Shown: one piece after another, positions 37,503 through 57,260 of the stretch
How the letters are laid out: every line of letters begins with the position of its first letter
Position numbering within the stretch: position 1 is the stretch's first letter
Assembly: GCA_910578325.1 (NCBI GenBank)
Contig: CAJTQT010000002.1
Location: 10,498 to 74,497 of the forward strand
Reading direction: 5' to 3'
DNA from: an uncultured Christensenella sp.
GTDB lineage: Bacteria; Bacillota; Clostridia; Christensenellales; CAG-917
DNA: 64,000 nucleotides
Program-made: the position numbers and the translations under genes
The notes under the pieces: model-generated
What the model was told of the DNA's origin: nothing
What the model saw: only the letters and a program-made list of their open reading frames with translations
Database searches by the model: none

Positions 37503-38159
37503 GTGAAACTCACTTGGCTTGGCCATTCATCGTTCAGGCTTGAAGAGAGCACGGGTACGGCGGTTGTCACCGACCCGTACCACTCGTCGGACGTAGGTTA
37601 CGCAATGCCCGCGGTTGCTGCGGATATCGTTACCGTAAGCCACGCGCACGACGACCATAATAACGTAGAGGAAGTCTCAGGCTCGCCGAAAGTGCTCGAT
37701 AGCGCGGGCGCTTATGAAATAGGCGGCGTGCATTTTCTTGCGGCGCATACTTATCACGACGGCGAGAAAGGCGCGCGTAGGGGAGACAATCTTGTTTTCA
37801 GATACCGTATGGACGGCGTTGACCTTTGTCATATGGGGGATATAGGAGAGGAGTGCAACGCTATTTTGGTTGATACGCTTATGCCTGTAAACGTGCTTAT
37901 GATCCCTGTCGGCGGAACATATACCATCGACGCCAAACAGGCGAAGGAGTATGTCGACAGCCTTATGCCGGATATCGTTATTCCTATGCACTATAAAACA
38001 AAGGACTGCGATATGGATATAGACAAGGTGCACGAATTCCTCGATTTGTTCGAAGATGAAAACATCGTTTATGCCGAAAGCGCGACGGTCGAATTTGACA
38101 GAGCAGATTTCGACGGAGAAGAGACGAAAGTGCTCGTTCTCGAAAAACTTTCAAAATAA
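37503..38159 (+). CDS. MBL-fold metallo-hydrolase
   Basis: GTG start. HAHDDH metal-binding motif. 218 aa. Confidence 0.75.
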   Translation: MKLTWLGHSSFRLEESTGTAVVTDPYHSSDVGYAMPAVAADIVTVSHAHDDHNNVEEVSGSPKVLDSAGAYEIGGVHFLAAHTYHDGEKGARRGDNLVFRYRMDGVDLCHMGDIGEECNAILVDTLMPVNVLMIPVGGTYTIDAKQAKEYVDSLMPDIVIPMHYKTKDCDMDIDKVHEFLDLFEDENIVYAESATVEFDRADFDGEETKVLVLEKLSK

Positions 38160-38315
38160 TTTTACTTTTAACCGCTTGTCGCCCGCTCCGCGGGCGCGAC
38201 ATACTTGCCTTTTTTTAAAGTACCGCCGAAATTGCCGATTTAACATTTATTATACGGGTTGTGCGAACTTGTTTCGCCGCCTGTATATGCAAACATTTTA
38301 GATAGGAGAATTTTT

Positions 38316-39944: not shown

Positions 39945-40011
39945 TGGCGGTAGGTTGTTTTGAGAATCGAGTAAATTTTACAAAATTCGCCAAAATAATC
40001 GCCGCAACCGC

Positions 40012-40040
40012 TTGTCAAAACCGACGGTATATTATATAAT
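40012..40040 (+). promoter_or_regulatory. Strong sigma-A promoter upstream of the structured RNA and tRNA-Ser
   Basis: TTGTCA (40012-40017) - 17 nt - TATAAT (40035-40040). Confidence 0.6.
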
Positions 40041-40046
40041 CTTGTC

Positions 40047-40140
40047 GTTGGGTTATAGAGAGGAAACCTCTCGCAGTGTTGTACAGTTGAGGGAAATGGT
40101 TTTGTTTTCCATCGTCCTTCAACTGCAACCCATTTATAGC
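40047..40140 (+). ncRNA. Unclassified structured RNA candidate (three-way junction)
   Basis: By-eye fold. P1 40049-40054/40127-40132 (UGGGUU/AACCCA). P2 hairpin GAGAGG-AAA-CCUCUC (40058-40072). P3 10-bp stem CAGUUGAGGG/CCUUCAACUG (40084-40093/40116-40125) capped by AUGG/CCAU. It begins ~7 nt after the -10 box. No coding ORF. Confidence 0.3.
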
Positions 40141-40170
40141 GGCAAAACGCAATAACCGTCAATAATAATC

Positions 40171-40294
40171 GGAGAAGAGATTGAACGCTTTCTCCGCAAA
40201 TCTTTTGGAGAAGTCGTTGGGTGTTTGGACGCCTTCTCTACAAATCTTTTGGAGAAGTCGTTGGACGTTTGGACGCCTTCTCCACAAATCTTTT
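40171..40294 (+). repeat. Tandem 44-nt repeats copying the tRNA-Ser 5' acceptor strand into hairpins
   Basis: Hairpins GGAGAAG...CTTCTCY at 40171-40195 (36-nt variant unit), 40207-40239 and 40251-40283. Each is followed by (G/A)CAAATCTTTT. The 20-mer CAAATCTTTTGGAGAAGTCG occurs three times, the last copy running into the tRNA-Ser gene. Confidence 0.85.
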
Positions 40295-40387
40295 GGAGAA
40301 GTCGCCTAGTTTGGTCGAGGGCGCGCGACTGGAAATCGCGTAACCGTCAAAAGCGGTTCAAGAGTTCGAATCTCTTCTTCTCCGCCA
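40295..40387 (+). tRNA. tRNA-Ser (anticodon GGA), CCA encoded
   Basis: Acceptor stem GGAGAAG/CTTCTCC, anticodon loop CUGGAAA, long variable arm AACCG-UCAAAAG-CGGUU, T-arm AAGAG-UUCGAAU-CUCUU, discriminator G plus CCA. Confidence 0.9.
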
Positions 40388-41155: not shown

Positions 41156-41184
41156 TTGAAATATGTCGCATTTGGTCTTATAAT
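41156..41184 (+). promoter_or_regulatory. Promoter of the two-component system operon
   Basis: TTGAAA (41156-41161) - 17 nt - TATAAT (41179-41184). Confidence 0.55.
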
Positions 41185-41259
41185 ATGAAAGATAAATTTA
41201 ATAATGATGCAATACACAGTTAATTTGAGTGTTGCGTACAAGTAAGAGGTTAAGGGATT

Positions 41260-41931
41260 ATGAGATTGCTTGTAGTGGAAGACGACGAAAAGTTGGCTAA
41301 GATTCTTTCCGTTGCGCTGTCGTCGGTAGGCGACGTCGACATCGCTTATACGGGTGAGAAGGCGTTGCAGTACGTTGAAAAGACGTATTACGATTTGGTT
41401 TTGCTGGACCTTATGCTCGGAAAACTCTCGGGAATGGAGGTTTTGCGCGAGATACGCAGAATGCATATTATGCCTGTAATTATACTTTCCGCGCTCAGCG
41501 ACGTGGATAAGAAGATTGAATGCTTTAAACTGGGCGCCGACGATTATATGACGAAGCCGTTTTCGCGGGAAGAGTTGATAGTCAGAATAGAGGCGGCGCT
41601 GAGAAGAGCGGGAGGTTCTTACAGCAGTACCGATTATAAGTTTGAAAATCTTGAAGTCAACTACGTAAACAAAATGCTGAAAATAGACGGAAACTACGTG
41701 GAAATGAACAGAAAGACGTACGAAATTCTGGAATTGCTTGTCCGTAACAAAGATATTATTATGACAAAGCAGCAAATTTTCGACAGAATCTGGGGATACT
41801 ATTCTACGACGGGCACGCAGGTTATTGAGATAAATATATTCAGATTGCGCAAGATATTGCAGCCGTACGGATTCGATAAAAATCTCAAAACCGTAAAAGC
41901 CACGGGATATATGTGGACGGAGAAAGTATGA
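41260..41931 (+). CDS. OmpR-family response regulator
   Basis: Receiver domain MRLLVVEDDEKL...DLVLLDLML (phospho-acceptor Asp) and a C-terminal winged-helix domain. Confidence 0.9.
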   Translation: MRLLVVEDDEKLAKILSVALSSVGDVDIAYTGEKALQYVEKTYYDLVLLDLMLGKLSGMEVLREIRRMHIMPVIILSALSDVDKKIECFKLGADDYMTKPFSREELIVRIEAALRRAGGSYSSTDYKFENLEVNYVNKMLKIDGNYVEMNRKTYEILELLVRNKDIIMTKQQIFDRIWGYYSTTGTQVIEINIFRLRKILQPYGFDKNLKTVKATGYMWTEKV

Positions 41932-43175
41932 GCGCATTTAAAATCGACAAAGATATACGCAGATTGCTTATAACGTATACGCTGGTGAATATGCTGTTGT
42001 TGCTGATAATTTTCGGCGCGCTTCTCGGCGGATATGTTGCGGTAACCGCAAAAGCGGGAGAGAAAGCGGTTCAGAACGATGCAGGTGCATATGCTTCCGT
42101 ACTGAAACAGTATACTCTTGACGAGATTTTGAAGATGTGTAAAGGAGACGCCGTGAGCGTGGAATTGGGCAATCCGTCGTATATGTTCGGCGTATACAGT
42201 ATGCGCGGAGACAATACGTATGAGTTTCATTCCAAATTTAGTTTTTTAAATGTCAACGAACCGAAAATCGGAGGAAAAAGCGATACCTTTGAAAGGCAGA
42301 GTATAGGCGGTTACGAGTTTGTCACGTATACCACTCCAGTTAAAGACAGCGCAGGCGCATATATAAAAGTTTTTGCGCCCGTCGATTTTTTGACAGAGTC
42401 GGAAAGAATGGTCAAAATTTACAGTATTCCTTTTGTCATCGCGTTTGTCGTGCTATGCGCGGTGGTGTCGTTGCTTTTGGGGTTTATAGAGATTCGTCCT
42501 ATTGCGGAAAACTATTATAAGCAGAAAAACTTTATCAACGATATGTCGCACGAGATTCGCACTCCGTTGGCGATAATAAAGGGAAATCTTGAAAACATAA
42601 AACAGTTTCCCGATTCTAAGATTTCGCAGGTGGGCGACAGCATAGCGGAGTGTTTGGGTGAAGTCGACTATATGAGCAATATGTCGTCGGGACTTTTAAG
42701 CATTGTACGGGGCGGAAATAAATCGGTAAAGAGGGAAACTCTTCTTAGCGAAGCGGTTTCGGAGGCGGTGGAAAATGCCGCTGATTTGGCAAGTATGAGC
42801 AATAAGTCGCTAATTGCGTGCATAGATAACTGCGATATTGCCGTTGATAAAGAAAAAATCAAACAACTGATGGACGTTCTTATCGAGAACTCTCTCAAAT
42901 ATACCGACGAGGGCGACAGAATCGACGTCAAACTGAAAAATACGAAAGAGGGTTGCGCACTGATTATTTCCGATACGGGAATCGGAGTGGCAAAAAACGA
43001 GTTGGAACTTATATTCGACAGATTTTACAGAGGTGAGAACGTCGGCGATAAACAGGGTACGGGACTCGGGCTTGCCATTGCGAAGACGGTTGTTGAGAGT
43101 ATGAACGGTACGATAAAAGCGATGCACAACGTTCCGAAAGGGCTTGAAATTGTCGTTACTCTCAAGAGAGGCTGA
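41928..43175 (+). CDS. Sensor histidine kinase (two TM segments, ~130-aa extracytoplasmic loop)
   Basis: ORF track 41913..43175. Start moved to ATG 41928 (ATGA overlap with the RR stop, GGAGAAAG RBS). H-box NDMSHEIRTPLAII, N-box LIENSLKYT, G-boxes DTGIGV and GTGLGLAI. Confidence 0.9.
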   Translation: MSAFKIDKDIRRLLITYTLVNMLLLLIIFGALLGGYVAVTAKAGEKAVQNDAGAYASVLKQYTLDEILKMCKGDAVSVELGNPSYMFGVYSMRGDNTYEFHSKFSFLNVNEPKIGGKSDTFERQSIGGYEFVTYTTPVKDSAGAYIKVFAPVDFLTESERMVKIYSIPFVIAFVVLCAVVSLLLGFIEIRPIAENYYKQKNFINDMSHEIRTPLAIIKGNLENIKQFPDSKISQVGDSIAECLGEVDYMSNMSSGLLSIVRGGNKSVKRETLLSEAVSEAVENAADLASMSNKSLIACIDNCDIAVDKEKIKQLMDVLIENSLKYTDEGDRIDVKLKNTKEGCALIISDTGIGVAKNELELIFDRFYRGENVGDKQGTGLGLAIAKTVVESMNGTIKAMHNVPKGLEIVVTLKRG

Positions 43176-43177
43176 TT

Positions 43178-46165
43178 ATGAGAAAAAAATCGGCGTTCTT
43201 ATTGACGGTTGTCGTTATACTTCTGGTAGCCAGCCTGTTTTGTGCCTGCAACGGCAACGATATACAGCCCGGTGTTCCTATAAGTTGGGAAAATTATCTT
43301 TCCGAACTTGCCGACACTGTGGCTGACGGGTTGGAATCCTGCGGTCAGATTATTGCATTCAGTTTTTCGGGGAACGCTTTGTTCGGGGAAAAATATTTTG
43401 AAATAATTTTGAAAGGCAATATCGATCTTTCAGATATGAACGGCGATAATGTCGCGTTGATTGTAAGCGATTCCGACGGGAAAACTAAGTTTTCGGTCTT
43501 GTCTGACAATAACGATACTTATATAGAGATAGCGCCGAACCCTTATGTGTCCAACGCTAAACTTAAATTACAACAAACTTTTATATTCGGGTTGCTGAGC
43601 GGCGTTTATAATCAGGATGACGGCGTTGACTTTCACGAAAAAGTCAAGCGGGGAATAATTACGTTCGGACGCAGTTTTTTTGAAAGCGCCGACGTGAACG
43701 AAGATAAGTCAAAATACTCATTTGGCATAAATGGAGAACTTTTAGGTAAACGAATGTTTGAATTTTTTACCGCGCTTTCTTTTGCGGACAAAGAAATTAC
43801 AAACGTTGTACTCGGCATATTCGGAATCAAAAACATCGATGAGTTGTTGTCTAATTTTGACAACGTGGACGGAGATGTGGAATTTTATATAGAAGACGGC
43901 AGGCTTAGCAGAGTTGAAATCGGAGATGCTATAGTCGGAGATATGGGAAAGTCTAATCTCGCTCTGGATATTTCAGTAAGCGGAGAATATGACGCGAGCG
44001 TGGATGAACTGTTTCCGAAATCGGACGACGGTTATAAAGTCACGAAAGTAGGCAGCACCACTATGGACGGCACGGTTTCTATGATATCATCCGTCGGTAA
44101 TAAATACGCGGTCAAATACGGAATGACATTGAATACGGATATAGATTTGTTTGCGCTTGCACTGAGCGGGTTTAATCTCGACGTTTTGAGCGAAGACAAC
44201 TTTTTCCATTTCAGATTGTCGCACAAATGTACTGCTTCCTGTACCGAATACTGCAAGAGCAGAATGTCTTCTGCAAAGGGCGCGGTTGTGGATATAGCGT
44301 TTTCTCCGTCGCACTTCGGCACCCACAACATTTATATCAGTCTAAATATAAAATCGCTTATGAGCAGGGAATATGTCGATGGAATTACAAAATACGTCAA
44401 AAGCATAACGGCATCATCGTTGCCCGATTACTGTATGTTGGTCGTGCCTGCTTCAAAACTCAAAGAAGACGGTGTGTTTTTGAAACTGCTTTACGACACG
44501 TATATCAAGATGATGAATATCGGAGTGGGAGAGACGGATACCGTCGACTTAAACCGTATAAGAGAGGAGTTCTCGGACAATAAGTTGGCAGAAACCATAC
44601 TCGGCGATATGCTCGGAAGCGAAGAGTACGATATAGATATCCTCAAAATCAGAGTGAACAAAAACGTTTACGGACAGGCTTACGATTACGATATCTATAA
44701 AGAAACGGTTTATTTAATCGATACAGAAGTATCAGGTGTGAAGTCGTACAAGACTCCGCTGGGAAAAGATTATACCGCCTATCGCTGGGAATACGAAGGG
44801 CGTAAGGCTGCAAAAGACGGAGTCAGGACGTACAGTCTGAACAATATATATGATTTGTCCGGTAATAATCTTCTTCACGGAGCGGACGCAGACGGCAATT
44901 ATGTGCCTATGAGCGACATCGAAGCAAAAGAACTTGTCGGTTGTTCGCTGAAACTTGATTACGCGGGTTATGACGGGATAAATAAAACTGCCTTCGGTGA
45001 AATTATGGCGGCGGATGGGATAGACTATCAGAACTTCGACGTTCAGGAAATTACGTTGCGAGTAAAGTATCCCAGTATATTCGACTATACTTTTGAATTC
45101 GGAGATATAACAGAAAAAGTTATGGAAGGCTTTTTCCGTTGCGGAAACGACGAATTTACGCAAACCGTAAAAGTCAATATAAAACTTACAAAGGAAATAG
45201 AGAACGCGTTCGAGTTTAAATCCGCGGATACCGATAAGGTATATATGCTGACATATATGTCGTCCGCGCCCGAACTGCTCAGCGCATCGGCGTTTATACA
45301 TTACGAAAACGGCGCGGTTAAAGAAATAAGCGCGTTGGGAGTTTCCGATTCGGTGTTGGAAACGAGAGGCATTTTAACAAGATACAGTATTGTCGACTGG
45401 GGACGCATAACGGTAAAGTTCCGTGTTGCGGGAAGAACGGTCGACAGATACTTCAATATACGTAAGCCTGATTCTTTCGAGTTTACGACGCGCGAGTATA
45501 CGGAAAAACTGGGCGAAAGTTGTTATATAGATAACTACGTCACAGTAAGAGCGGTTTATGACGGTCAAAAAGTGACTCTTAAACTGTCGTTAAAGGATTT
45601 CTATATAAACGGTCTCAGCCTCAACGACGATTCTGCCGATTGGGACCATTATACAAGTTATACCAACAGATACGTTGTTTTCTACAAATCGGGAGACTAT
45701 AACGTGCAGGTGAAAAAACTCGGAGTAGTTTTCGGGGATTATTTGTTGCATATAACGAATAAGTTGGAATCCACGCCGACGTACAAATTCGATACTCAGT
45801 CCGAACTGCCGTCGGTGGTTTTCCCGAACGTGAAAATAAATATAAACGGAAGTATAGTAAATAAAACGCACGGCGATGGAGAGGGCGGTATTCACACTGT
45901 TGAAGTCAAGGTGGAGGAATACGTGGTTTCGGGAACAATGATTCTATATGCCGACGCGGATAAAAACGACTACTCTCTGCAATTAAAGATAGCGTCAGAA
46001 ACAGTCGATCCGGACAGTAAAACGGAAGTTTTTTTGCCCGCTCTTGTTATTAACCCTGTAAACTTGCAGATGAGTCTGATTTTCAATAAAGCGGGAACTT
46101 ACAGACTGTCGGTACGGCTTGACAGGACGACAGTTTATACAGCAACGATAACGGTAATCGTATAG
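43178..46165 (+). CDS. Large hypothetical lipoprotein (995 aa)
   Basis: Signal peptide plus lipobox LFCAC. Starts 2 nt after the HK stop. No domain recognised by eye. Confidence 0.8.
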   Translation: MRKKSAFLLTVVVILLVASLFCACNGNDIQPGVPISWENYLSELADTVADGLESCGQIIAFSFSGNALFGEKYFEIILKGNIDLSDMNGDNVALIVSDSDGKTKFSVLSDNNDTYIEIAPNPYVSNAKLKLQQTFIFGLLSGVYNQDDGVDFHEKVKRGIITFGRSFFESADVNEDKSKYSFGINGELLGKRMFEFFTALSFADKEITNVVLGIFGIKNIDELLSNFDNVDGDVEFYIEDGRLSRVEIGDAIVGDMGKSNLALDISVSGEYDASVDELFPKSDDGYKVTKVGSTTMDGTVSMISSVGNKYAVKYGMTLNTDIDLFALALSGFNLDVLSEDNFFHFRLSHKCTASCTEYCKSRMSSAKGAVVDIAFSPSHFGTHNIYISLNIKSLMSREYVDGITKYVKSITASSLPDYCMLVVPASKLKEDGVFLKLLYDTYIKMMNIGVGETDTVDLNRIREEFSDNKLAETILGDMLGSEEYDIDILKIRVNKNVYGQAYDYDIYKETVYLIDTEVSGVKSYKTPLGKDYTAYRWEYEGRKAAKDGVRTYSLNNIYDLSGNNLLHGADADGNYVPMSDIEAKELVGCSLKLDYAGYDGINKTAFGEIMAADGIDYQNFDVQEITLRVKYPSIFDYTFEFGDITEKVMEGFFRCGNDEFTQTVKVNIKLTKEIENAFEFKSADTDKVYMLTYMSSAPELLSASAFIHYENGAVKEISALGVSDSVLETRGILTRYSIVDWGRITVKFRVAGRTVDRYFNIRKPDSFEFTTREYTEKLGESCYIDNYVTVRAVYDGQKVTLKLSLKDFYINGLSLNDDSADWDHYTSYTNRYVVFYKSGDYNVQVKKLGVVFGDYLLHITNKLESTPTYKFDTQSELPSVVFPNVKININGSIVNKTHGDGEGGIHTVEVKVEEYVVSGTMILYADADKNDYSLQLKIASETVDPDSKTEVFLPALVINPVNLQMSLIFNKAGTYRLSVRLDRTTVYTATITVIV

Positions 46166-46186
46166 TTTAGTTTTAGTCGGTGTTTT

Positions 46187-46220
46187 GAGCGCAACGCGAT
46201 ATAAGCGTTGCGCTCTTTTT
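46187..46220 (+). terminator. Terminator of the RR-HK-lipoprotein operon
   Basis: 11-bp stem GAGCGCAACGC / GCGTTGCGCTC followed by TTTTT. Confidence 0.85.
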
Positions 46221-46434
46221 GTTATATTATCATTAAATAAATTTTAAACATTTAAAGCCGAATTTATCTTAATAATAAGAATTGTCAGAAAAAAGAGGTA
46301 AAATTTTCGATATTTTTATACAAAAACCCGAAATTTAATTTTAATTTAATTTGTTTGATATGTTTTTGCAATACTATGATATTGTCAGAATAGGAGAACT
46401 ATATTCTGCACATAAAAATTATGGGGGCATATTT

Positions 46435-49400
46435 ATGAAAAAACATTCTTTTAAACTTATGCTGATTGCGCTTATCGTAGTCATCTGTTTGGGAACTGTT
46501 GTTTTGGCGGCGTGCAATCCGGATACTCCTTCGGGCTCAACCGATTACAGCAAACCCACTGGCACTATGTTAAACGAAATAGTCGGCAAAATCACATCGA
46601 GTATGAGTTTCGGAGAGAGTTTCGGCGTCGATGTCAGCGCGGCTTTTGCTATCGATGACAAAACGGCGGCAAACAAAGACGTCACTTACAGACTCACGGT
46701 CAAAGGAAATGCGGACGGCAGGGCGGACGCAGCCGAAGACGCGACGAATTTCGTTATCGATTTGGTTGAACAGAAAGGCGAAACAAAAAACAGCCTGCTC
46801 AGCATTGCTTACGAGGCTATCGAGGACGAACCGTTTTTCTTTGTCAGCATACTCGGAAGCGATTATAAGAAAATCAACGGATATTCTCTTGCGTCTCTTT
46901 ATAAGATGACTCAAAAGGGCAACGCAACTTCCGCAGCGGAAGACGATCTGGACATCGGTCTTGTAATCGATGCCATTATTCCTATTCTCTTTGGCGAAGA
47001 CGGCACTGTTAAAGATAACGTTTACACCTTGGATTTCGATTTCGGAAAGACGGTTGCGGGCATTGTTGAAAACAAGAACGCAATTCTAACTGTCCTCGGA
47101 ATGACGAGCGAGCAACTCGACGCGCTTGTCGCACAGTATCTCGGAAACCTCAGTTATGAGCAGAACGGAGAAACTATAAACGTAAGCGACGTAGATACTC
47201 TCAAAGCGTTTTTGCAGAGAACTTACGGCATCAAGGGCAAGATAGAATTTAAATTTGACGCAAACGATAAATTCGTAAGCGCGAACGCAAGTTTCGATTA
47301 TAAGAATAAAGGCGAAGACAAAGCAAATTATACGCTTTCTATTGAAAAAGCGGAAATCGGCACAGTTACGACTCCCGTTGACGCCTTCAAAGATTTCGCA
47401 ATGTCATCGTCCGAGCGTAAGAATGCTCAGGCGGTTAATGCACTCAATTTCTCACTCAAAGGCAATGCTACGGGTTATAATGCAGACGGAGAGCCTATTC
47501 ACAATTATACTATCGAAGTTCAATCCGATATCGACGCATTCGAACTGATAGGACTGCTTAACGGTACGAATAAAGAAAATATTGTAGCGACGCTTAAAAA
47601 ACTCGGATATTTTCATCTTGAAATAAACGAGGTGTTTGAAGATAAAGAACCACTCAACATCATTATGCTTCACAGCAAGTTCGAAGAGGGTTTTGCAGTC
47701 GTCAATTTGAATGCATATAAAGCAATTTTATACAATGTAGGACTCGGCGGAGTGTATGATTTCGATACTCTAATCGACGTTATCGGAATGATCGGCGAGG
47801 GCGGAGAGGACGAGAATCCCGAAGAATCCGCAAGCATAATCGACACTCTTAAAAATGTCATAACAAGCGTAAAGGATGTGCTGGGATACTTCACGTTTGA
47901 AAATATGAAGGAAGACGGCGTAACCGTTGCGCTCAACGACCTTGTGTATAAGATTTGCGATATGGCAGGACTTGACACAAGCGGTCTTGTCGGCTCCGCG
48001 ATAGGTGCTATTGTCGGTTGCGACAAAATGAATATAAAACTTCAAACTCCGACCTTCGGCACTTGCGAGACAGTTGAAACGTCCACAATAAAGGGCGGAA
48101 TCAGAGAAACGTCTAATCTTAATAACAATAAAGTCGGCGAATACGACTTATCGGCGTCACGTTACAGCCTCATCAAATCAATCAAATCCATTGACGGACT
48201 GAGTGTAAAATTATTGCAGGGCGAAAGCAATCTGGCAAGATTCTTCAAGGGCTATGTTGCTTATGACAAGGTTATTCTTATGACAGGCGTCGACCTTGCA
48301 GACAACGAAATTCAAACAAGCGGCTTTATTATGGCAGTGAAAGGACTTGACGTCACTAAACCCGGAAAGCAAAAAGTTACTTTCTATATCGCAATAGCGA
48401 ACGACCTGCTTTCTCTCAATTCGTTCTTTACACTTGACGACCTGCTTCCGCTTTCGGGTACTATTAAGTTTGAAACCGAAATAGAAGTTGTTCCATTTGA
48501 TAAGACTGCAGAAGTCACTGTTTCTAATCTCAAGGCAGAAGAACAAACTGTTCTTGCAGGAGGGAAGAAAGCCTTCGACGTCATCAGAGAGAAGACTTAC
48601 GGCGCGGATACGATTATGACAATCGCGGGCATCGGCGAATTCAAGATGACCGATAGCGACGTCAGAGTGATTGACGAGGACGGCAAAGACGTTACAGCAG
48701 ATGTTGTAAACGAAAGCGGTTATATAACAGTTGCAGGTACCTACAGCACTAAACTTTTGTTTGCCGGTTATGAAACGAACTGCTGCACGATTAAAGTAGA
48801 AGACGCTATTGCCGAACGTGTTGACGGCAAGACCGAACAGGAGAGCATATCGCTCGGAGGCACGTGGAACTTCGGCGAGTACAAAGCATACGCTGTGGCA
48901 GCCGACGGCACTAAGACGGAATCTTCCGTTGCCGCGCAATACAGAATGGGCGGTACGACTCTTAAATCGCTCGATGAGGTATTCGATATCGAAAACGGCG
49001 TCTACACACTCAAAAAGGATTTGAGTTTTGTCGGCAAGAACTTTACCGTCAGATTCAATAACGTCGTGACCGAAAGCGGATTAAAAAAGACCGTAGACGT
49101 AAATATTCCTGTCGTATCCGATTATTCGGTGAGTACGCTCGGCAGTATGTATTTCGGTATGTCTATAAGCAACAAACTTGTTTTGACGGTTGGTGAGACA
49201 GAGTTCAATATCGTGCTTAAAGACGGTAACTGGGTTGCCGTTGACAAAGACGGAACGACTAAAAATGTTGAACTTACTTTCGAATGGGATAAGAGTAAGA
49301 CTGCGGTAGAATTTTCGGCAGACGGATTTATCAATAACTATCCCAACGAAAACAAATCCGGATACCGCAGCAATAAAATCAATTACAGTCTCAAGGTTGA

Positions 49401-49755
49401 CGGATACTATCTTAACGCATCCTTTACCGCTTATGAAATGTACGCGATAAACAAGTCCTCGGCAAAAGTCGGTAATAAACTTGACGGATATATTGAAAAA
49501 GTCGACGTTATGGAGTATGCCGTGGACGGCGAGTCCCGAGTTCTTGAATTCAAATACGGCCCCGAAGGTTATGCAATTTATGTAAAAGGCACCGATACCA
49601 AAGTGTATGACGTTACTGTCACGGTGGAGTTGGGCGGCGCCGAAGTCGAACTTGTAGACGGCGCATTTACAGAGACAGGTAAGTACAAAGTGACTTACAG
49701 TGCGACAATAAACGGTGTCGAACAGACGTTCTTCCACGACGTAACCGTTAAATAA
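46435..49755 (+). CDS. Large hypothetical lipoprotein (1106 aa)
   Basis: ORF track 46351..49755. Start moved to MKKHSFKLMLIALIVVICLGTVVLAAC (ATG 46435), giving a signal peptide plus lipobox LAAC. The C-terminal half is beta-rich. No domain recognised. Confidence 0.8.
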   Translation: MKKHSFKLMLIALIVVICLGTVVLAACNPDTPSGSTDYSKPTGTMLNEIVGKITSSMSFGESFGVDVSAAFAIDDKTAANKDVTYRLTVKGNADGRADAAEDATNFVIDLVEQKGETKNSLLSIAYEAIEDEPFFFVSILGSDYKKINGYSLASLYKMTQKGNATSAAEDDLDIGLVIDAIIPILFGEDGTVKDNVYTLDFDFGKTVAGIVENKNAILTVLGMTSEQLDALVAQYLGNLSYEQNGETINVSDVDTLKAFLQRTYGIKGKIEFKFDANDKFVSANASFDYKNKGEDKANYTLSIEKAEIGTVTTPVDAFKDFAMSSSERKNAQAVNALNFSLKGNATGYNADGEPIHNYTIEVQSDIDAFELIGLLNGTNKENIVATLKKLGYFHLEINEVFEDKEPLNIIMLHSKFEEGFAVVNLNAYKAILYNVGLGGVYDFDTLIDVIGMIGEGGEDENPEESASIIDTLKNVITSVKDVLGYFTFENMKEDGVTVALNDLVYKICDMAGLDTSGLVGSAIGAIVGCDKMNIKLQTPTFGTCETVETSTIKGGIRETSNLNNNKVGEYDLSASRYSLIKSIKSIDGLSVKLLQGESNLARFFKGYVAYDKVILMTGVDLADNEIQTSGFIMAVKGLDVTKPGKQKVTFYIAIANDLLSLNSFFTLDDLLPLSGTIKFETEIEVVPFDKTAEVTVSNLKAEEQTVLAGGKKAFDVIREKTYGADTIMTIAGIGEFKMTDSDVRVIDEDGKDVTADVVNESGYITVAGTYSTKLLFAGYETNCCTIKVEDAIAERVDGKTEQESISLGGTWNFGEYKAYAVAADGTKTESSVAAQYRMGGTTLKSLDEVFDIENGVYTLKKDLSFVGKNFTVRFNNVVTESGLKKTVDVNIPVVSDYSVSTLGSMYFGMSISNKLVLTVGETEFNIVLKDGNWVAVDKDGTTKNVELTFEWDKSKTAVEFSADGFINNYPNENKSGYRSNKINYSLKVDGYYLNASFTAYEMYAINKSSAKVGNKLDGYIEKVDVMEYAVDGESRVLEFKYGPEGYAIYVKGTDTKVYDVTVTVELGGAEVELVDGAFTETGKYKVTYSATINGVEQTFFHDVTVK

Positions 49756-49871
49756 GTATAAATTTTGGAGGGATAATGCGCTTGCAATACCGGTCTCTTG
49801 CCCGAATTGCTTTGATATGCAGGCGATTATTCCTCCGAAAAGTTAATCTATACGAATTATAGGGGTATAAA

Positions 49872-51104
49872 ATGAATAAAGCGATTTTATATAAAGCGCT
49901 GAAAAGTATCTTCTTCCTCGCGGGCTTCCCGCTTCTGATAATACTTATGATTATCACGATGGCGCCGATGTTCGGCACCGAGGTTTTAGGAAATCACGCG
50001 CAAAATTGGATTATCGCATTTACGGTAATCTGGGTAGTATTGCTCATAATCCACTTCCTCCTTGAAAAATTCATAGGAGAAAAGAGTGAGGCTCACCACA
50101 AGGTGGTCCTTGTGGTGATGTCCGCACTCTCCATTCTGTGCATACTGCTTCCGTCCGCTATCTTCGACGCGGTGACGCGTCCCAAATACGAAGCGGCTCA
50201 AAAGCAGTTGGTGGGAGAGGTTGACATTAAGAACTACGACGCCGTCGCAGGGTGGCACAGAGATTTCACCAAACGCTATGACAGCGACGTTTACGTTCTT
50301 ATAAACGAAAATTACGATTTTATCAAACAGTACGGAATGGAACACACCTATTCCGAATGGTACGACAACGCCGATAAAGAGCATAATCTCGGATATAAGT
50401 ACGGCTCTTTCGAAAAAGCGAAAGTGCTGACCGAGCAGAAACTCGAAGCGTTGAGAAACCTTGAAGCGGCGAAAGCGGAACTTGCAGAAATCGAAGCCGA
50501 AATCGACGTCAAACTTCAATCGAGCAAAGCGGCTGACGAAGCCCTTGCTCAAAACCCGAACGACGAGGCTCTCGTAAAAGCGGCGGAAGAAGCCCGCAAG
50601 GCATACGACGATATTCTCGCAGAAAAGGAAGAGGACCTTGTCAGACTTAAAGGTTCACGCGTAGACATAACCGAATATAAGGGCGAAATCGTCGATATTC
50701 TGCTTGCTGCGATAAAGGACAAAGACCTTCTTCCCGACGGATTGACGCTCAATCTTTTGGGTATAGACATTCCCGTTGGCGACCTTCTCGACCTCGTGAT
50801 GCAATATGCTGGCGGATTCCTCAATGCTGAAACCATCAACGGACTTATTCCCGACGTGATTTACACGGGTATGGGCCCCCAGACCGTGTCGACTTATCAG
50901 AAAGCGGTTGACGGTTCGGACAGCGATTTGTCGCTTGCGGACGCTCAGAAACTCAATTTCAAGTACACATACTATCCTTCGGTACTTGCCGGCGGCGCAA
51001 TGAAATACGTCTGCTACGTATGCGTGGGTATAGTGGTTCTGAGCCTGTTCCTCACAGATTACTTTGCTAAGAAACAGAAAGAGGAGGAAAAGAAAAATGA
51101 CTGA
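49872..51104 (+). CDS. Hypothetical membrane protein with central coiled coil (410 aa)
   Basis: 3-4 N-terminal TM segments, an A/E/K-rich coiled coil (LEALRNLEAAKAELAEIEAEID...), and a C-terminal TM anchor followed by KKQKEEEKK. Confidence 0.75.
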   Translation: MNKAILYKALKSIFFLAGFPLLIILMIITMAPMFGTEVLGNHAQNWIIAFTVIWVVLLIIHFLLEKFIGEKSEAHHKVVLVVMSALSILCILLPSAIFDAVTRPKYEAAQKQLVGEVDIKNYDAVAGWHRDFTKRYDSDVYVLINENYDFIKQYGMEHTYSEWYDNADKEHNLGYKYGSFEKAKVLTEQKLEALRNLEAAKAELAEIEAEIDVKLQSSKAADEALAQNPNDEALVKAAEEARKAYDDILAEKEEDLVRLKGSRVDITEYKGEIVDILLAAIKDKDLLPDGLTLNLLGIDIPVGDLLDLVMQYAGGFLNAETINGLIPDVIYTGMGPQTVSTYQKAVDGSDSDLSLADAQKLNFKYTYYPSVLAGGAMKYVCYVCVGIVVLSLFLTDYFAKKQKEEEKKND

Positions 51105-52218
51105 GAAAAAATGGCTTTATCCTTTGATCAACATCCTTCTCTATGCGGTTGGCTTCCCGATTATGTTCATCGTGGCTCTTGTCGAGTCTCTGAAATGGAA
51201 CAGTTACGGGATGTACGGAGCGTCCTCATTCGCGCCTTTGATTGCGGTTATCATAATCGCGGTTATCGTGCTCGGCGTACAGGCTCTTGTGTACAATCTT
51301 TGCAAGAAGAAATGCAAAACAGGCAAATCGCTTATGCTCAAAATGGCGTGCATTCCTCTTGCGGTCATCGTAGGTCTGTTCGGAATACTTGATATAGCAA
51401 TGCCTCCGCTTCTCAAATCCGCAACGTCGAATACCATACTTTACGAAGACGTGGTGTACGATTATCAGGGTATGCACGAGCAGATTTACGCCAGAGTAGA
51501 GGCGTTTAAAGCGAAGAACGGTCTGGATGAATCCGTCAAATATACCGACGAAGAATTCCAGAGAATTTTCAAGCCCATTTACAAGAGTATGAACGACGCA
51601 TACAAGTCTTTCGATCCTCTTGCCATTGAAATCGCGCTTGACAAACCCGATATGTTGCAGGCTATTTCCAACGGCGATTTCCCGATTGAACTTGCCGCGA
51701 CTCTGTTGCTTAAAACGTCCGGAAAGCCCAACGAGAGCGATCACAATCTGACTGTAAATCAAATTCTTTCTATGAACCTGCTTAAAATAGTCAACGTTGT
51801 GCTCGACGCAGTAAACAACGGCCTCGATTTCAGCGATACCGCAAAACTCAACGAAATAGTAAACTCAATTCTTGTTTACAAAGAGTTTGACGGCATCAGA
51901 TGGAACATATTCAATATTCTCGGAAACAATATGCTTTTCCCCGACGTTGACCCCAACGCGGAAATAGTGCAGTACGTTTACAACGAATGGGGCGATATCG
52001 AGAGCGAAGAAGTCATCGGCGCGGCTCTGGGCTATCAGGATATGGCGTGGCTTGACGGCATTCCGATGATGTTCTTTATCCCGCTTATGTCGATGAGAGT
52101 AGTATTCTACGTGTTCGCAGCATTGCTTACGCTGTTCGCGGTTGCGCAATACTTCGTATCGGAAGCATACGCAAACAAATTCTCCAAGACTTTCTCTTAT
52201 ATAATGCTTAAACACTGA
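51097..52218 (+). CDS. Hypothetical membrane protein (373 aa), paralog-like of the preceding gene
   Basis: ORF track 51064..52218. Start moved to ATG 51097 (8-nt overlap with the upstream stop). Same topology as the upstream gene. Shares an N-terminal L-x-[AV]-GFP-[LI] motif (LLYAVGFPIMF vs FFLAGFPLLI). Confidence 0.75.
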   Translation: MTEKKWLYPLINILLYAVGFPIMFIVALVESLKWNSYGMYGASSFAPLIAVIIIAVIVLGVQALVYNLCKKKCKTGKSLMLKMACIPLAVIVGLFGILDIAMPPLLKSATSNTILYEDVVYDYQGMHEQIYARVEAFKAKNGLDESVKYTDEEFQRIFKPIYKSMNDAYKSFDPLAIEIALDKPDMLQAISNGDFPIELAATLLLKTSGKPNESDHNLTVNQILSMNLLKIVNVVLDAVNNGLDFSDTAKLNEIVNSILVYKEFDGIRWNIFNILGNNMLFPDVDPNAEIVQYVYNEWGDIESEEVIGAALGYQDMAWLDGIPMMFFIPLMSMRVVFYVFAALLTLFAVAQYFVSEAYANKFSKTFSYIMLKH

Positions 52219-52242
52219 CGTGTTTGAGAATCTCCCGAGAAG

Positions 52243-52268
52243 AGCGCTTACTATATAAGCGCTTTTTT
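52243..52268 (+). terminator. Terminator of the lipoprotein-membrane protein operon
   Basis: AGCGCTTA-CTATA-TAAGCGCT followed by TTTTT. Confidence 0.75.
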
Positions 52269-52319
52269 CGTATAAAAATGTGTGTATCAAAACCGTGAAT
52301 TTAACAAAAATTTGTTCAT

Positions 52320-52490
52320 CTATTAAACATTTAGATGTATTTTCCACGCATAAAATCCGTGAAATCTTACGCGCAATCACCTTTATGCATTATTTTGATA
52401 TGTATTTACGAATGGATTAGTCTGTGACGGTTGATTTTTTTTAATAAAGAAACTATAATTTATATTAAAATACATCTAAATGTTTAATAG
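52320..52490. promoter_or_regulatory. Candidate invertible promoter segment (perfect 24-bp inverted repeats flanking 123 bp)
   Basis: CTATTAAACATTTAGATGTATTTT at 52320-52343 and its exact reverse complement at 52467-52490. An internal promoter faces the LRR gene. Confidence 0.5.
52431..52459 (+). promoter_or_regulatory. Promoter inside the IR-flanked segment, oriented toward the LRR gene
   Basis: TTGATT (52431-52436) - 17 nt - TATAAT (52454-52459). Confidence 0.55.
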
Positions 52491-52526
52491 GTGTATTTTC
52501 GCGTTTAATATCAGAGGTGGGTTATA

Positions 52527-55500
52527 ATGAAGAGAAAATCATTTGCAATTTTGATTTCGGTTATTTTGTGCATAAGTCTTTGCCTGTTTGTGCTTGTTGC
52601 CTGCGACGAGCAGAACGGCACCGAGGCTCACGAGCACAGTTTTGCAAAGTGGTCTTATGACGATTACGAGCACTGGCGCGAGTGCAATGCGGCAAACTGT
52701 CCGTCGCCCGAGAATGACAGAGGCGCGCACGAGTTTGACGCAAACGGCAAATGCTTCTGCGGTTTTGTACGGGCAGGACAGGAAGAAGAGCATATCCACG
52801 AGTTGAACCATTTTGATGCCGTGGAAGTAAACTGTGAGCGCGACGGCAATATCGAATACTGGCTTTGCAAAAAATGCGGGCTGTATTTTTCGGACGCCGA
52901 AGCGAAAATAACTGTGAATGCCTCCGACGTATTTACTTATTCTGAAGGACACGATATGAACTACCGCGGTAGGAAAGACGCGACCTGTACGGAAGTCGGT
53001 TGGAATGATTACGAATTCTGCACCCGCTGCGACTATTCCACGTATAAAGAAATTCCTGCTCTCGACCACGATATAATACATTTTGACACCAAAAAGCCGA
53101 CTTGTACCGAAGACGGTTGGGATGCGTATGAAATGTGCACGAGATGCGACTATAACACGCTTACAAACTATTATCCGTCAGACGGGCACGCTTTGATTCC
53201 GCACGACGGCAAAGACGCTACGTGCACCGAGTCGGGATGGCTATATTACGAGACTTGTGAGAAGTGCGATTATAATACTTATCAGGAACTGTATCCTCTT
53301 CAACACGATTTGAGTTTTTATTCGAGAAAGGACCCAACCTGTACGGAAGACGGTTGGTTTGATTATGAAATTTGCACCCGTCCCGATTGCGGATATAGCA
53401 CTTATGCCGTGTTGGAAAAGTTGGGACATATTCTGTATCAACATGGTGGACGTCCTGTATCCTGTGAGTTGGACGGTTGGGAGCCGTATGAGGAATGCAT
53501 TCGCGAAGAATGCGGGTATTCTACTTTTGAAAATATACCCGCGATAGGACATAACGTTGTTACGGATTTTGCCGTAGAGCCTACCTGTGCGGCGGAGGGC
53601 AAGACGGAGGGTTCACATTGCGAAAATTGCGGTCTTGTTTATACGCCGCAGTACAGCATTCCAAAACTTCCGCACGTAAGCGGAAACTGGACTATGACGG
53701 GAACAACGCACTCGGGCGAGTGCACCGTCTGTCATATGGAAGTCAAAGGACCGCACGACTGGAGTTATAATATCTGTACCGAGTGCGAGTATACGGGATA
53801 TGAAGAGGGCGATACCCGCGGACTTAATATGTCCGTACACTCTGAAAACGGAGTGCAGGTAGGATACGCAGTGTACGGTTTGGGTACTGCTACGGACACC
53901 GATATCAGAATTCCGTCAACGTACAACGGATTGCCGGTAAGTTATATTTACATACTGAGTCAAAGTCTCAATACGAGTATAACAAGCGTGTATGTTCCCG
54001 ACAGTGTTGTGGGTATGGAAGACGGTGCGTTTTCAAGATGCAGGTCGCTCAAAGAAGTTCGGTTGTCGGAAAATATAACCGAAATTTCCGATCGGGCTTT
54101 TAACTTGTGTGGGAATCTCGAAAGTATAAATATTCCGTTCGGAGTGAAAAGCATAGGGGAGCGCGCCTTCTTTGAGTGTCGCGCTTTGAAGAATATCGTA
54201 ATACCCGACGGTGTGAAGAGTATAGGGGAGCGCGCATTCTATCTGTGCAGTTCGTTGACGGAAATCATTTTACCCGAAAGCGTAACGCAGGTCGGACAAG
54301 GGGCGTTTGCAAGTTGTACAAACGTCACCGATGTTTCTATACCGAGCACTTTGTACGATATCGGAGCGGAGGTTTTCAAAGATTGCAGTAAAATAAACTA
54401 TAACACAGACGAATACGGCTTATTGAATTATCTTGGAAATGAAGATAATCCCTATCATCTGCTTATAGGTGCGAAAAAAGATATAAACGCAACTTCTCTT
54501 GCGGTGAATAATCTGACAAAAGTTATTTCCGATTACCCGTTTATATCGTGTACTGAAACGCTGACGTCGTTAACGCTCGGAAACGTGTGCAGAATAAACG
54601 AAGGTCTGATTGCAGATTGTACCAAAATTACGAGCATAACTATTCCGGATACTGTGGAAAAAATCGGTCATTCCGCTTTCAAGGGATGCAGTTCGCTGAC
54701 TGAAATCAATCTTCCCGACAGTATTACGGAAATTTCGCATTCGATGTTTATGGGATGCAGTTCGCTGACGGAAATAATTATTCCCGACAGCATTTCGGAC
54801 ATTCCGTATTTGATGCTTATGGGATGCAGTTCGCTCGCTTCCGTCACGTTGCCGAGTATGTGTACAACCATTTCATATTCAGCATTCGAAGAATGCGTTT
54901 CGTTAAACTCGGTTTATATTCCCGATACGGTCGAATTTATAGATTACAGAGCGTTTTACGGCTGTACCGCGCTGACAAGTATAACAATAAATTCAAGAGT
55001 GACGAAAATTTCGCATTCCACTTTTTCAAATTGTGCCGAACTTTCGGAAGTTACGATTCTGGGCAGTATAACGGAAATCGGAGCAAGTGCATTCGTAGGC
55101 TGTTTAAAACTTGAAAATTTTGAGTTCCCCGAAAGCGTTTCAAAGATCGGGGATTCCGCATTTTACGGTTGTTCTGCATTGAACAGTATAAGACTGCCTG
55201 AAAACTTAACGAATATAGGCAGTGCTGCTTTTAGAAATTGCGCTGCCTTGACAAGCATCAGATTGCCTGATAGCGTAATCAGTGTAGGCGATCAAGCCTT
55301 TGAGAATTGTAAATCCATTGAAGAAATGATTCTTTCAAGCAATTTGGAAGGCATACCTTCGAATTTTATGTACAACTGTACTGCACTCAAAAGCATTGTT
55401 ATTCCTGATTCTGTAACGTACATCGGTTCCGGTGCTTTTGTAAACTGTTCGCTGATTACGGAAGTTATAATCCCCGACAACGTCGTGAGTATAGCGTCCG

Positions 55501-57185
55501 GTAGAGGCAGCGGCACATTCGAAAACTGCACGGGAATAGTGAATCTTGTAATAGGCAATAACGTAGAACATATAGGTGATAATAGTTTTTACAATTGTAC
55601 GGGGCTCACATCTGTAACGTTGCCGAATACGCTGATAACTCTCGGCGGAAGTGTATTTAGAGGATGTGCAAACATATCTGAAATAACTTTCGGCGACCGC
55701 TTGCAGGAAATCGGCGCTCAAGCGTTTGACGGTTGTTCGTCTTTGACTTCCTTATACATTCCGGACGGTGTAAGCAATATCGGCTGGGGCGCATTCCGTA
55801 ACTGCGAAAATGTAACGGAAATGCATTTCCCTGCCAACTTGCAACAGGTCAGCGCTTATATGTGTTACAATATGAAAAAGTTGACCGATGTCGAAATACA
55901 TTACGGCGCAACGTCTATAGGCAACAACGCGTTTGACGGTTGCTCTTCGATAAAAACGCTCTCTATACCGGAAACTGTTACGTCAGTGGGAGACGAAGCA
56001 TTTAGATACTGTATGTATGTCGAGATTGCGACGATTCCCGCAGCCGCGTTTTATGAATTATTTAGGGGGTGGAGGATTAGTCCGTCCTCTGTGCCTATCA
56101 ATTCTTGCAATACCGTAACCGATTTAACTATTGCGGGCGGGGGAGATATTCCCGACAGTTCAAGCGGTGGGTTTGATGTATTGAAAAACCTTGTTATAAG
56201 AAACGTCGATAGGATCGGAAACCGCGCGTTTTCTAACTCCAAAGCGATTGAAAACGTCACGTTTGAAAACATAAAAGAAATCGGAGAGAGCACCTTCGAG
56301 GGATGCGGCTCTATGCTTAGTGCGGTGCTTCCGCAGGGATTGCAGAAAATAGGCGACTTTGCGTTTAAGGGATGCGGATTTATCACCGAATTTTACATCC
56401 CCGGAAGCGTAGAGGAAATAGGAAAGGGCGTGCTTACGGAATATTCCGGTTATTATATAGAAGGAGACGGAGGGGAAATTCTTCCGGTAATTAAACCGTT
56501 AAATCTGACGGTCGACAGCGAAAATCCGAGATACTACGGCAATAACTTTATAGTAGACAGTTATACTAAAACCTTGATATTCAGTTATCAGGGAAATTGG
56601 GAAGGAGATATCGAAACTATCGGAGAGTATGCTTGCGTGAAAGGATTTAATAATATTCCGGAAACTGTAAAGTATATAGAAAATTATGCGTTTTACGGCT
56701 GTCGCATAAAAGATTTGATAATACCCGATAACGTAGTCAGCATAGGCGATTACGCATTTAGTGCTGACCTTGATGACTTTGGCAAAGGTATAGGTAGCAT
56801 CAAATATATATCTAAAAATTTAACTCATTTAGGAATGGGAGCGTTTGTGGGCTGTAATGCAGGGGAATTTGAAATCTGGGACGATAATATCGTGTTGCCT
56901 GAGGGCATTACGGAAATTAGTATGATGGCGTTTGCGCGTAGCGGTTTGAAATCTATAACGCTACATTCCGGTTTGCAAAGTATAAAAATGGAAGCATTTT
57001 TCCATTGTCAGGATCTGGAAGATATTTATTATGAAGGAACCAAAGAGCAATGGAATCTTATTCCGAAAGACGCTGGATGGAATGGACATATTCCCCATAT
57101 AATAAATGGCGACGATACACGAGTTCTTCATTTTACCGTGCATTGTACCGACGGGGATTTGGATAAGGACGGCAACGAAATTTAA
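52527..57185 (+). CDS. Giant surface lipoprotein: Cys/His-rich tandem repeats plus BspA-type leucine-rich repeats (1552 aa)
   Basis: Lipobox LVAC. Aa ~88-383 hold ~7 Cys/His repeats. From aa ~440 onward there are dozens of ~23-aa units matching I-IP-SVT-IG--AF--C--L--I (BspA/LRR_5 type). Confidence 0.9.
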   Translation: MKRKSFAILISVILCISLCLFVLVACDEQNGTEAHEHSFAKWSYDDYEHWRECNAANCPSPENDRGAHEFDANGKCFCGFVRAGQEEEHIHELNHFDAVEVNCERDGNIEYWLCKKCGLYFSDAEAKITVNASDVFTYSEGHDMNYRGRKDATCTEVGWNDYEFCTRCDYSTYKEIPALDHDIIHFDTKKPTCTEDGWDAYEMCTRCDYNTLTNYYPSDGHALIPHDGKDATCTESGWLYYETCEKCDYNTYQELYPLQHDLSFYSRKDPTCTEDGWFDYEICTRPDCGYSTYAVLEKLGHILYQHGGRPVSCELDGWEPYEECIREECGYSTFENIPAIGHNVVTDFAVEPTCAAEGKTEGSHCENCGLVYTPQYSIPKLPHVSGNWTMTGTTHSGECTVCHMEVKGPHDWSYNICTECEYTGYEEGDTRGLNMSVHSENGVQVGYAVYGLGTATDTDIRIPSTYNGLPVSYIYILSQSLNTSITSVYVPDSVVGMEDGAFSRCRSLKEVRLSENITEISDRAFNLCGNLESINIPFGVKSIGERAFFECRALKNIVIPDGVKSIGERAFYLCSSLTEIILPESVTQVGQGAFASCTNVTDVSIPSTLYDIGAEVFKDCSKINYNTDEYGLLNYLGNEDNPYHLLIGAKKDINATSLAVNNLTKVISDYPFISCTETLTSLTLGNVCRINEGLIADCTKITSITIPDTVEKIGHSAFKGCSSLTEINLPDSITEISHSMFMGCSSLTEIIIPDSISDIPYLMLMGCSSLASVTLPSMCTTISYSAFEECVSLNSVYIPDTVEFIDYRAFYGCTALTSITINSRVTKISHSTFSNCAELSEVTILGSITEIGASAFVGCLKLENFEFPESVSKIGDSAFYGCSALNSIRLPENLTNIGSAAFRNCAALTSIRLPDSVISVGDQAFENCKSIEEMILSSNLEGIPSNFMYNCTALKSIVIPDSVTYIGSGAFVNCSLITEVIIPDNVVSIASGRGSGTFENCTGIVNLVIGNNVEHIGDNSFYNCTGLTSVTLPNTLITLGGSVFRGCANISEITFGDRLQEIGAQAFDGCSSLTSLYIPDGVSNIGWGAFRNCENVTEMHFPANLQQVSAYMCYNMKKLTDVEIHYGATSIGNNAFDGCSSIKTLSIPETVTSVGDEAFRYCMYVEIATIPAAAFYELFRGWRISPSSVPINSCNTVTDLTIAGGGDIPDSSSGGFDVLKNLVIRNVDRIGNRAFSNSKAIENVTFENIKEIGESTFEGCGSMLSAVLPQGLQKIGDFAFKGCGFITEFYIPGSVEEIGKGVLTEYSGYYIEGDGGEILPVIKPLNLTVDSENPRYYGNNFIVDSYTKTLIFSYQGNWEGDIETIGEYACVKGFNNIPETVKYIENYAFYGCRIKDLIIPDNVVSIGDYAFSADLDDFGKGIGSIKYISKNLTHLGMGAFVGCNAGEFEIWDDNIVLPEGITEISMMAFARSGLKSITLHSGLQSIKMEAFFHCQDLEDIYYEGTKEQWNLIPKDAGWNGHIPHIINGDDTRVLHFTVHCTDGDLDKDGNEI
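52788..53675 (+). repeat. About seven tandem ~40-aa Cys/His repeats (coding)
   Basis: Units such as GHDMNYRGRKDATCTEVGWNDYEFCTRCDYSTYKEIPAL, DHDIIHFDTKKPTCTEDGWDAYEMCTRCDYNTLTNYYPSD, and GHALIPHDGKDATCTESGWLYYETCEKCDYNTYQELYPL. Pattern: H-x(8-10)-C-x(4)-W-x(2)-Y-E-x-C-x(2)-C-x-Y. Confidence 0.85.
54660..54870 (+). repeat. Near-identical 69-bp tandem DNA repeats within the LRR region
   Basis: GGGATGCAGTTCGCT starts at 54683, 54752 and 54821, an exact 69-nt period equal to one 23-aa LRR unit. Confidence 0.8.
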
Positions 57186-57224
57186 ACGTCTGTTGTCTTA
57201 TAAACGCATAGATAATCAAGAGTT

Positions 57225-57260
57225 ATGAAATCCGCCGATTTTAGGCGGATTTCATATTAT
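57225..57260 (+). terminator. Terminator of the LRR gene
   Basis: 12-bp stem ATGAAATCCGCC / GGCGGATTTCAT followed by an AT-rich tail. Confidence 0.7.

Follow-up and report, generated by a model that had tools for sequence, protein, structure and literature searches.

The stretch of DNA analysed here (64,000 nucleotides from an uncultured Christensenella sp., GenBank assembly GCA_910578325.1, contig CAJTQT010000002.1, positions 10,498 to 74,497; hereafter the window) carries, within 41.1-52.3 kb, six genes that encode in order a response regulator (RR), a histidine kinase (HK), two large predicted lipoproteins (LipoA and LipoB) and two membrane proteins (MemA and MemB). These genes, and the regulatory features described with them, all lie on the plus strand and form two transcription units. 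Unit 1 starts at a promoter-like site, TTGAAA-17-TATAAT (41156-41184; 11 of 12 matches), whose position is kept in the alignment of RR upstream regions. It comprises the RR, of 223 residues and the OmpR/PhoB family (41260-41931), the HK of 415 residues (41928-43175), whose ATG at 41928 overlaps the RR stop codon as ATGA, and LipoA of 995 residues (43178-46165), whose ATG at 43178 follows the HK stop codon (43173-43175) after a gap of 2 nt. The unit is closed by an intrinsic terminator (46187-46220) with an 11-bp stem containing 8 G-C pairs (hairpin 46187-46215, then a T-run). Unit 2 starts at the promoter-like site TTGATA-17-GATATT (46355-46383) and comprises LipoB of 1106 residues (46435-49755), MemA of 410 residues (49872-51104) and MemB of 373 residues (51097-52218), the latter two genes overlapping by 8 nt. 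Its terminator (52243-52268) has the form AAGCGCTT-actatat-AAGCGCTT followed by TTTTT. The original prediction, made from the letters of the window, had described the genes, junctions and terminators of both units in this form, and every junction, gene length and terminator was read directly at its coordinates and agrees with that description. Terminator hairpins are also found at the same place 3' of LipoA in other loci, and the two-operon design is therefore conserved. Between LipoB and MemA lies a further strong, G+C-rich hairpin that lacks a T-run (49763-49840; dG -34.9 kcal/mol, z -2.8), and hairpins of unrelated sequence occupy the same position in 9 of 11 loci, those other than the present one being L003, L004, L005, L007, L009, L010, L011 and L012.

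The linkage of the six genes was examined by profile search over 12 related loci, wherever the contig was long enough. The order RR-HK-LipoA-LipoB-MemA-MemB is identical in L002, L003, L004, L005, L006, L009 and L011, truncated loci likewise keep the gene order of the cassette, and the genes that flank it are unrelated between loci. As such, the six genes are one conserved, self-contained accessory envelope cassette. It had been proposed that the locus is an envelope module of undescribed proteins linked to a two-component system (TCS), and this is supported by the fixed six-gene linkage together with the lack of family matches described below. The strong terminator and the separate promoter between the TCS-LipoA and LipoB-MemA-MemB operons might be taken to mean that the two are mere neighbours which form no functional unit. 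However, the RR-HK-lipoprotein and lipoprotein-membrane-membrane blocks co-occur in every complete related locus in differing contexts, and the same box motif (below) is present at both promoters, and we find an accidental neighbourhood of the two operons scarcely credible.

Amino acid identity across the cassettes is highest for the RR (81-93%), lies at 50-73% for the HK and the membrane proteins, and is 33-55% for the lipoproteins. Between LipoA and LipoB the intergenic sequence is little conserved except for a 20-bp block, ATTTAATTTTAATTTAATTT (46333-46352), which is identical in 10/10 aligned loci between flanks that are about 50% identical. This box is invariant across 11 independent loci, with one copy in each, while the cassette proteins at these loci are 33-93% identical. 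It is a conserved candidate operator for the RR that the original prediction had missed. Together with its 3' flank the box forms an 11-bp direct repeat (ATTTAATTTTA / ATTTAATTTGT), and it ends two bases before the -35-like TTGATA of unit 2. Activator sites of the OmpR/PhoB family are 11-bp direct repeats abutting the -35. In class II promoters of the Pho-box and OmpR type the repeat lies directly upstream of the -35 or replaces it, and the promoter of the regulator itself carries a related site. The geometry and position of the box fit sites of this type, and we infer that the RR may bind it. A half-site, ATTTAAT, is present just 3' of the RR promoter -10 in 6/6 of the RR upstream regions available; in the present locus it forms part of the half-box ATTTAAT-AATG-ATGCAAT (41196-41213), a candidate autoregulatory site, and in L005 and L011 the half-box comes close to the complete LipoB box. 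The half-site differs from the known sites in being specific to the cassette, and is a candidate site. The invariant box at the LipoB promoter, in combination with half-boxes at the RR promoter, suggests a private circuit that runs from the sensor to the operon. L003, L004 and L008 each have a third LipoB-like gene at a distance of 2.4 kb, and a degenerate copy of the box stands in front of it. Within the 1.6-Mb genome the box is unique in a scan at up to 2 mismatches; the sole other near-match in this genome, AAATTTAATATTAATTTAATTAT (C1:151519; 3 mismatches over 23 nt), sits between divergent genes, with a 517-residue Cys-rich open reading frame beginning about 95 nt further on.

The TCS itself is ordinary. 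The RR consists of a receiver domain (Pfam Response_reg, 3.4e-25) and a winged-helix domain (Trans_reg_C, 6.5e-16), and the HK contains HisKA and HATPase_c, all above the Pfam curated cut-offs. By Pfam and hydropathy the HK has two transmembrane (TM) helices enclosing an outside loop of ~115 residues, with HisKA and HATPase_c straight after TM2. No NCBIfam equivalog for either protein reaches its cut-off, and the TCS is therefore not an orthologue of any named system. Tight spacing of RR, HK and lipoprotein genes within one operon is shared with MtrA-MtrB-LpqB of Actinobacteria and with saePQRS of S. aureus, systems whose lipoproteins act outside the membrane as modulators of the kinase. In contrast, LipoA bears no sequence relation to LpqB or SaeP, with no Pfam or NCBIfam match in LipoA itself and no Pfam match in 22 orthologues. 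It is also roughly double LpqB in size and has a predicted immunoglobulin (Ig)-like array at its C-terminal end, and unlike mtrAB-lpqB the cassette always has a second operon attached, encoding LipoB and two membrane proteins.

By analogy with such systems the cassette could be an envelope-stress or antimicrobial-response module, in which LipoA would act as an accessory co-sensor of the kinase, in the manner of LpqB with MtrB or of SaeP/SaeQ with SaeS, and LipoB-MemA-MemB would shield or repair the membrane or the wall. This would be in agreement with the tight RR-HK-lipoprotein order (the 2-nt gap seen here is 0-3 nt in most loci), with the possession of an outside loop by the kinase, with a patchy accessory distribution resembling that of many resistance cassettes, and with the fact that conservation in MemA and MemB is highest at the outer surface of the membrane. 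Against it, Pfam and NCBIfam reveal no ABC transporter, peptidase, Dlt/MprF-like protein or other known resistance component, the two 1000-residue Ig-array proteins far exceed known immunity or co-sensor lipoproteins in size, and homology to LpqB, SaeP or NisI-type proteins is absent. We consider a stress-response role of this kind unlikely.

Both LipoA and LipoB are predicted to be lipoproteins from a signal peptide, an invariant cysteine and the presence of Lgt, whose gene was found in the genome (5e-54). Cys24 of LipoA is invariant in 22 orthologues, as is Cys27 of LipoB in its own family; the LipoB lipobox, LAAC, is canonical, and that of LipoA, LFCAC, is unusual at -3. A search of the genome for Omp85 found none. 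The presence of lgt and the absence of Omp85 imply that the cell has no outer membrane and that the lipoproteins reside on the outer face of the cytoplasmic membrane. Neither protein has a family match in Pfam or NCBIfam, nor is there a Pfam match in any of 52 lipoprotein orthologues, and 5.8 billion protein clusters contain only 15 relatives of LipoA and 38 of LipoB. The predicted model of LipoA is of moderate quality (pLDDT 75, pTM 0.54), with an N-terminal half of mixed beta/alpha structure and tandem Ig-like beta-sandwiches over residues ~536-993, and the C-terminal half of the protein is thus predicted to be a tandem Ig-like array. The top Foldseek matches of this model are the S-layer proteins EA1, SbsC and Sap (E 2e-7 to 7e-7, probability 1.0), with contactins, filamin and bacterial adhesins scoring similarly and TM-scores of ~0.1 throughout. 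Like LipoA in its model, these S-layer proteins of the Bacillaceae are strings of beta-sandwich domains, and they are large, abundant surface proteins of single-membrane cells; the resemblance extends to domain type only. LipoA differs from them in lacking an SLH or other wall-binding domain (Pfam) and is predicted to be anchored by lipid. LipoA also contains an invariant cluster, H344/H349/C351/C355/C359 (H-x4-H-x-C-x3-C-x3-C, within HFRLSHKCxxxCTEYC; window 44207-44254), which may bind metal; the organism is a strict anaerobe and the lipoprotein extracytoplasmic.

It had been claimed that the two giant lipoproteins are a duplicated pair. What stands of this claim is the existence of two short collinear blocks aligned by hhalign. 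A BLASTP comparison of LipoA with LipoB gave nothing significant, and the hhalign match of 97% at the N-terminus leans partly on the signal peptide, without which the ~90 N-terminal residues of the mature proteins align at 53% probability (E 1e-4). The second block pairs LipoA ~583-644 with LipoB ~606-665 (91.8%, E 8e-7). The KGN-x-D segment reported in both proteins was located at residues 79-83 of LipoA and 90-94 of LipoB, inside the aligned N-terminal block, and this block is the membrane-proximal N-terminal domain. LipoB has a modular construction of its own. Its C-terminal beta-rich segments repeat internally (701-800 against 1001-1106, 93%), and LipoB-like variants of ~1780 residues exist, the one examined having a triplicated internal segment. 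Rapid evolution (33-55% identity, the fastest in the set) combined with modularity is typical of exposed surface proteins. Extra LipoB-like paralogues lie 2.4 kb downstream of the cassette in L003 (18292-20991), L004 (14862-17120) and L008 (5845-8172), and a tandem array of three occurs without the cassette in another genus (G241:C3:126649-138182).

For the two membrane proteins the proposal of a duplicated pair is borne out. Hydropathy gives each protein a bundle of three helices at the N-terminus and a single helix at the C-terminus, with a large loop between them, and the charge distribution places this loop outside the cell, in agreement with the topology originally described (N-terminal TM bundle, long middle, C-terminal TM helix). 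The outside loop of MemA, between TM3 and TM4, spans ~270 residues and includes a coiled-coil-like stretch. Profiles of MemA and MemB align by hhalign over the TM helix bundle (91.7%, E 8e-7), the MemA hidden Markov model matches MemB proteins at 1e-6 to 1e-8, and the order of MemA-like and MemB-like genes is constant. MemA and MemB are therefore true paralogues. Of the motif reported to be common to them, L-x-[AV]-GFP-[LI], the part [AV]-G-F-P-[LI] is indeed present in both, and the 'L-x' prefix is inexact in MemA. The best-conserved segments of both proteins are outside stretches next to the membrane.

No Pfam match was obtained for MemA, MemB or any member of the wider family to which they belong. 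The earlier remark that the four middle proteins carry no recognisable domain was thus upheld in Pfam, NCBIfam, PADLOC and PHROGs, with zero PADLOC matches and nothing in PHROGs beyond a marginal holin-like match on a MemA TM helix (E 0.001), which was rejected as hydrophobic noise. Profiles of the four proteins gave only chance-level matches against the sequences of solved structures. The AlphaFold2 (AF2) model of MemB is confident (pLDDT 86.4, pTM 0.78) and had no fold match in the PDB by Foldseek (best E 3.0) and nothing among the viral structures of BFVD. The four envelope proteins are undescribed families, MemB has no detectable fold relative, and the architecture of the module has no described counterpart; it is at these levels, of protein family and architecture, that the newness of the system lies.

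The nearest parallel in topology is with eukaryotic tetraspanins such as CD81. Judged by hydropathy and by the AF2 model of MemB, MemA and MemB resemble these in having the N-terminus inside and two outside loops, of which the first is short and the second large and mostly helical; the loop on the inside is short, as is the inside tail that follows the fourth helix. Tetraspanins are lateral organisers of partner surface proteins, the role proposed here for MemA and MemB. However, CD81 appeared in the MemB search only at rank 4 with no significance (E 5.3, TM-score 0.13/0.19), MemB is devoid of the tetraspanin Cys-Cys-Gly motif, with zero cysteines in residues 101-333, and MemA and MemB, unlike tetraspanins, are an obligate adjacent gene pair. 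Given this E value and the absence of the defining cysteines, the tetraspanin likeness is an analogy and not membership. In each of the comparisons with mtrAB-lpqB, S-layer proteins and tetraspanins, a defining feature of the known system was looked for and found to be missing.

The cassette pair is not the only MemA/MemB pair of this organism. A wider family consists of adjacent MemA-like and MemB-like genes, always with the MemA-like gene first. In five loci examined their products range from 361 to 921 residues with variable loops, and no TCS or lipoprotein gene adjoins them. A core pair in the same genome encodes a MemA-like protein of 1016 residues (C6:70425-73475) and a MemB-like protein of 890 residues (C6:73477-76149). 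With a broad profile this core pair was detected in 104 of 108 genomes and in 16/16 genera of the family. Only 4 genomes matched in a class-wide sample of 399, these being the present genome, two of the same family and one outside the order (weak, E 9e-6), and the MemB profile matched 113 clusters among 1.84 billion representatives. In the cassette, MemA/MemB is an additional copy of this pair, which nearly all genomes of the family carry and which is almost absent outside the order, and the family-wide core copy had escaped the original prediction. The long cytoplasmic tails of the core pair carry 4 and 5 copies of KKGLFGRKKKK with a period of ~36 residues and acidic linkers between them, a motif that resembles amphipathic membrane-targeting peptides. 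A 4003-residue representative (P0137) with 11 repeats of a MemB segment was dropped, as it looks repetitive or artefactual.

The eight TM helices of a MemA/MemB pair could line a pore, and TCS-controlled, substrate-induced operons with large binding lipoproteins are common. The cassette could by this token serve sensor-induced capture and uptake, with the lipoproteins binding a polymer or host molecule and MemA/MemB acting as the conduit. We regard this as improbable, as the cassette encodes no ATPase, energy-coupling component or recognisable transporter fold, carbohydrate-binding and hydrolase domains occur in 0/52 lipoprotein orthologues, and the core membrane pair stands alone beside housekeeping genes. 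A known transporter class (ABC/FtsX-MacB, BceAB) was rejected, there being no ATPase gene in any locus and no FtsX or ABC permease domain in Pfam.

The cassette is confined to one clostridial order, in Christensenella-like gut bacteria. Strict MemB orthologues were found in 8 of 108 family genomes (~7%) and in 3 of 401 genomes sampled across the order, and the two closest relatives, with neighbouring genes that are 79-90% identical, lack the cassette. These findings agree with the earlier placement of the locus in an accessory region. A search for the empty insertion site in these two relatives gave no clean boundary, the flanking genes lying on separate contigs and other genes following rho. 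Decay of the cassette is seen in relatives (L006/L022, 7308-8739; L021, 13264-15430): LipoB is split into 336 and 157 residues in one relative's genome, and in another MemA is shortened to 162 residues beside the gene of a large serine recombinase, with a full LipoB on a different contig. Upstream of the cassette in the window (33314-40387) are lepA, a hemN-like radical SAM gene, a prs-like gene, an MBL-fold hydrolase gene, rho and tRNA-Ser(GGA). The same prs-MBL-rho group is found right next to the core membrane pair in two further genera (L014 and L015); this may be coincidence or the trace of an old neighbourhood.

Immediately downstream, the promoter TTGATT-17-TATAAT of a leucine-rich repeat (LRR) gene (52527-57185), the only good one that this gene has, lies between the arms of a perfect 24-bp inverted repeat (52320-52343 and 52467-52490). 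The gene encodes a 1552-residue BspA-type LRR lipoprotein with a canonical lipobox, LVAC, and its promoter is a candidate invertible, phase-variable one on the basis of these repeats. The original prediction had made this gene a third unit of the module. The promoter flanked by the inverted repeat was indeed found, but the LRR gene adjoins the cassette in no other locus, and the LRR lipoprotein was ruled out as a cassette member for that reason.

The position of an accessory cassette in a variable region, close to a tRNA gene and to the LRR surface protein that may be phase-variable, could also suggest a phage-related surface module, in which a lipoprotein coat masks receptors or excludes phage. 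Such a role would explain the patchy spread and fast evolution of the cassette, and is in keeping with the lipoproteins being the fastest to diverge and with the cut MemA beside a serine recombinase gene in one genome. However, no PADLOC or PHROGs match and no viral fold match was found, no integrase or phage genes adjoin the cassette within the window, and a sensor-induced design is unusual among exclusion systems. A phage-related function therefore seems to us a remote prospect.

We tentatively favour the reading that the cassette produces an inducible surface coat or adhesin on a MemA/MemB platform. It is suggested by the fast divergence and modularity of the lipoproteins and by the Ig arrays of LipoA with their S-layer top matches. 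RR, HK and LipoA would be transcribed together, and the HK, through its outside sensor loop, would sense an outside cue. On this signal the RR would bind the direct-repeat box abutting the -35 and turn on LipoB-MemA-MemB, and would probably also act at its own promoter via the half-box just past the -10. MemA and MemB may form a heterodimeric platform in the cytoplasmic membrane, on which LipoA and LipoB could dock by their shared membrane-proximal N-terminal domains, projecting outward as the inducible coat or adhesin. The hairpin after LipoB might let LipoB exceed MemA and MemB in amount.

Several points weigh against a circuit and a coat of this kind. The AT-rich string of the box turns up by chance in AT-rich metagenome contigs, and in a metagenome scan the first 120 matches listed were AT-rich unrelated contigs, none with the cassette; the significance of the box is therefore due to its position and conservation and not to rarity. 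Since the S-layer matches of LipoA are equalled by animal Ig arrays at TM-scores of ~0.1, they show domain type and not function. No wall-anchoring or lattice-forming domain is recognisable in LipoA or LipoB, and the His/Cys cluster of LipoA, like the many invariant polar residues in the two membrane proteins, could just as well belong to a site for catalysis or ligand binding. A bolder proposal, which goes beyond the coat on its platform and which we think doubtful, is that MemA and MemB represent a new prokaryotic superfamily of paired tetraspanin-like organisers, with the core pair central to the envelope and the cassette a sensor-switched version that mounts a coat.

The Christensenellales are heritable, health-associated gut bacteria whose envelope is poorly understood. 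The cassette and, more so, the family-universal core pair from which it derives are envelope components without a described relative. New components of this sort matter for a group that stains Gram-negative yet lacks lipopolysaccharide and Bam genes, as reported for Christensenella (PMC11448272). The cassette also offers a clean experimental entry, with a private sensor, a defined candidate operator, a defined output operon, and strains with and without it. If the proposed platform and coat are real, bacteria with a single membrane would have a novel means of displaying large surface proteins and of switching them; and if the organiser role of the pair is correct, the core pair with its huge outside domains would be a central component of the unusual Christensenella-type envelope that has escaped notice until now.

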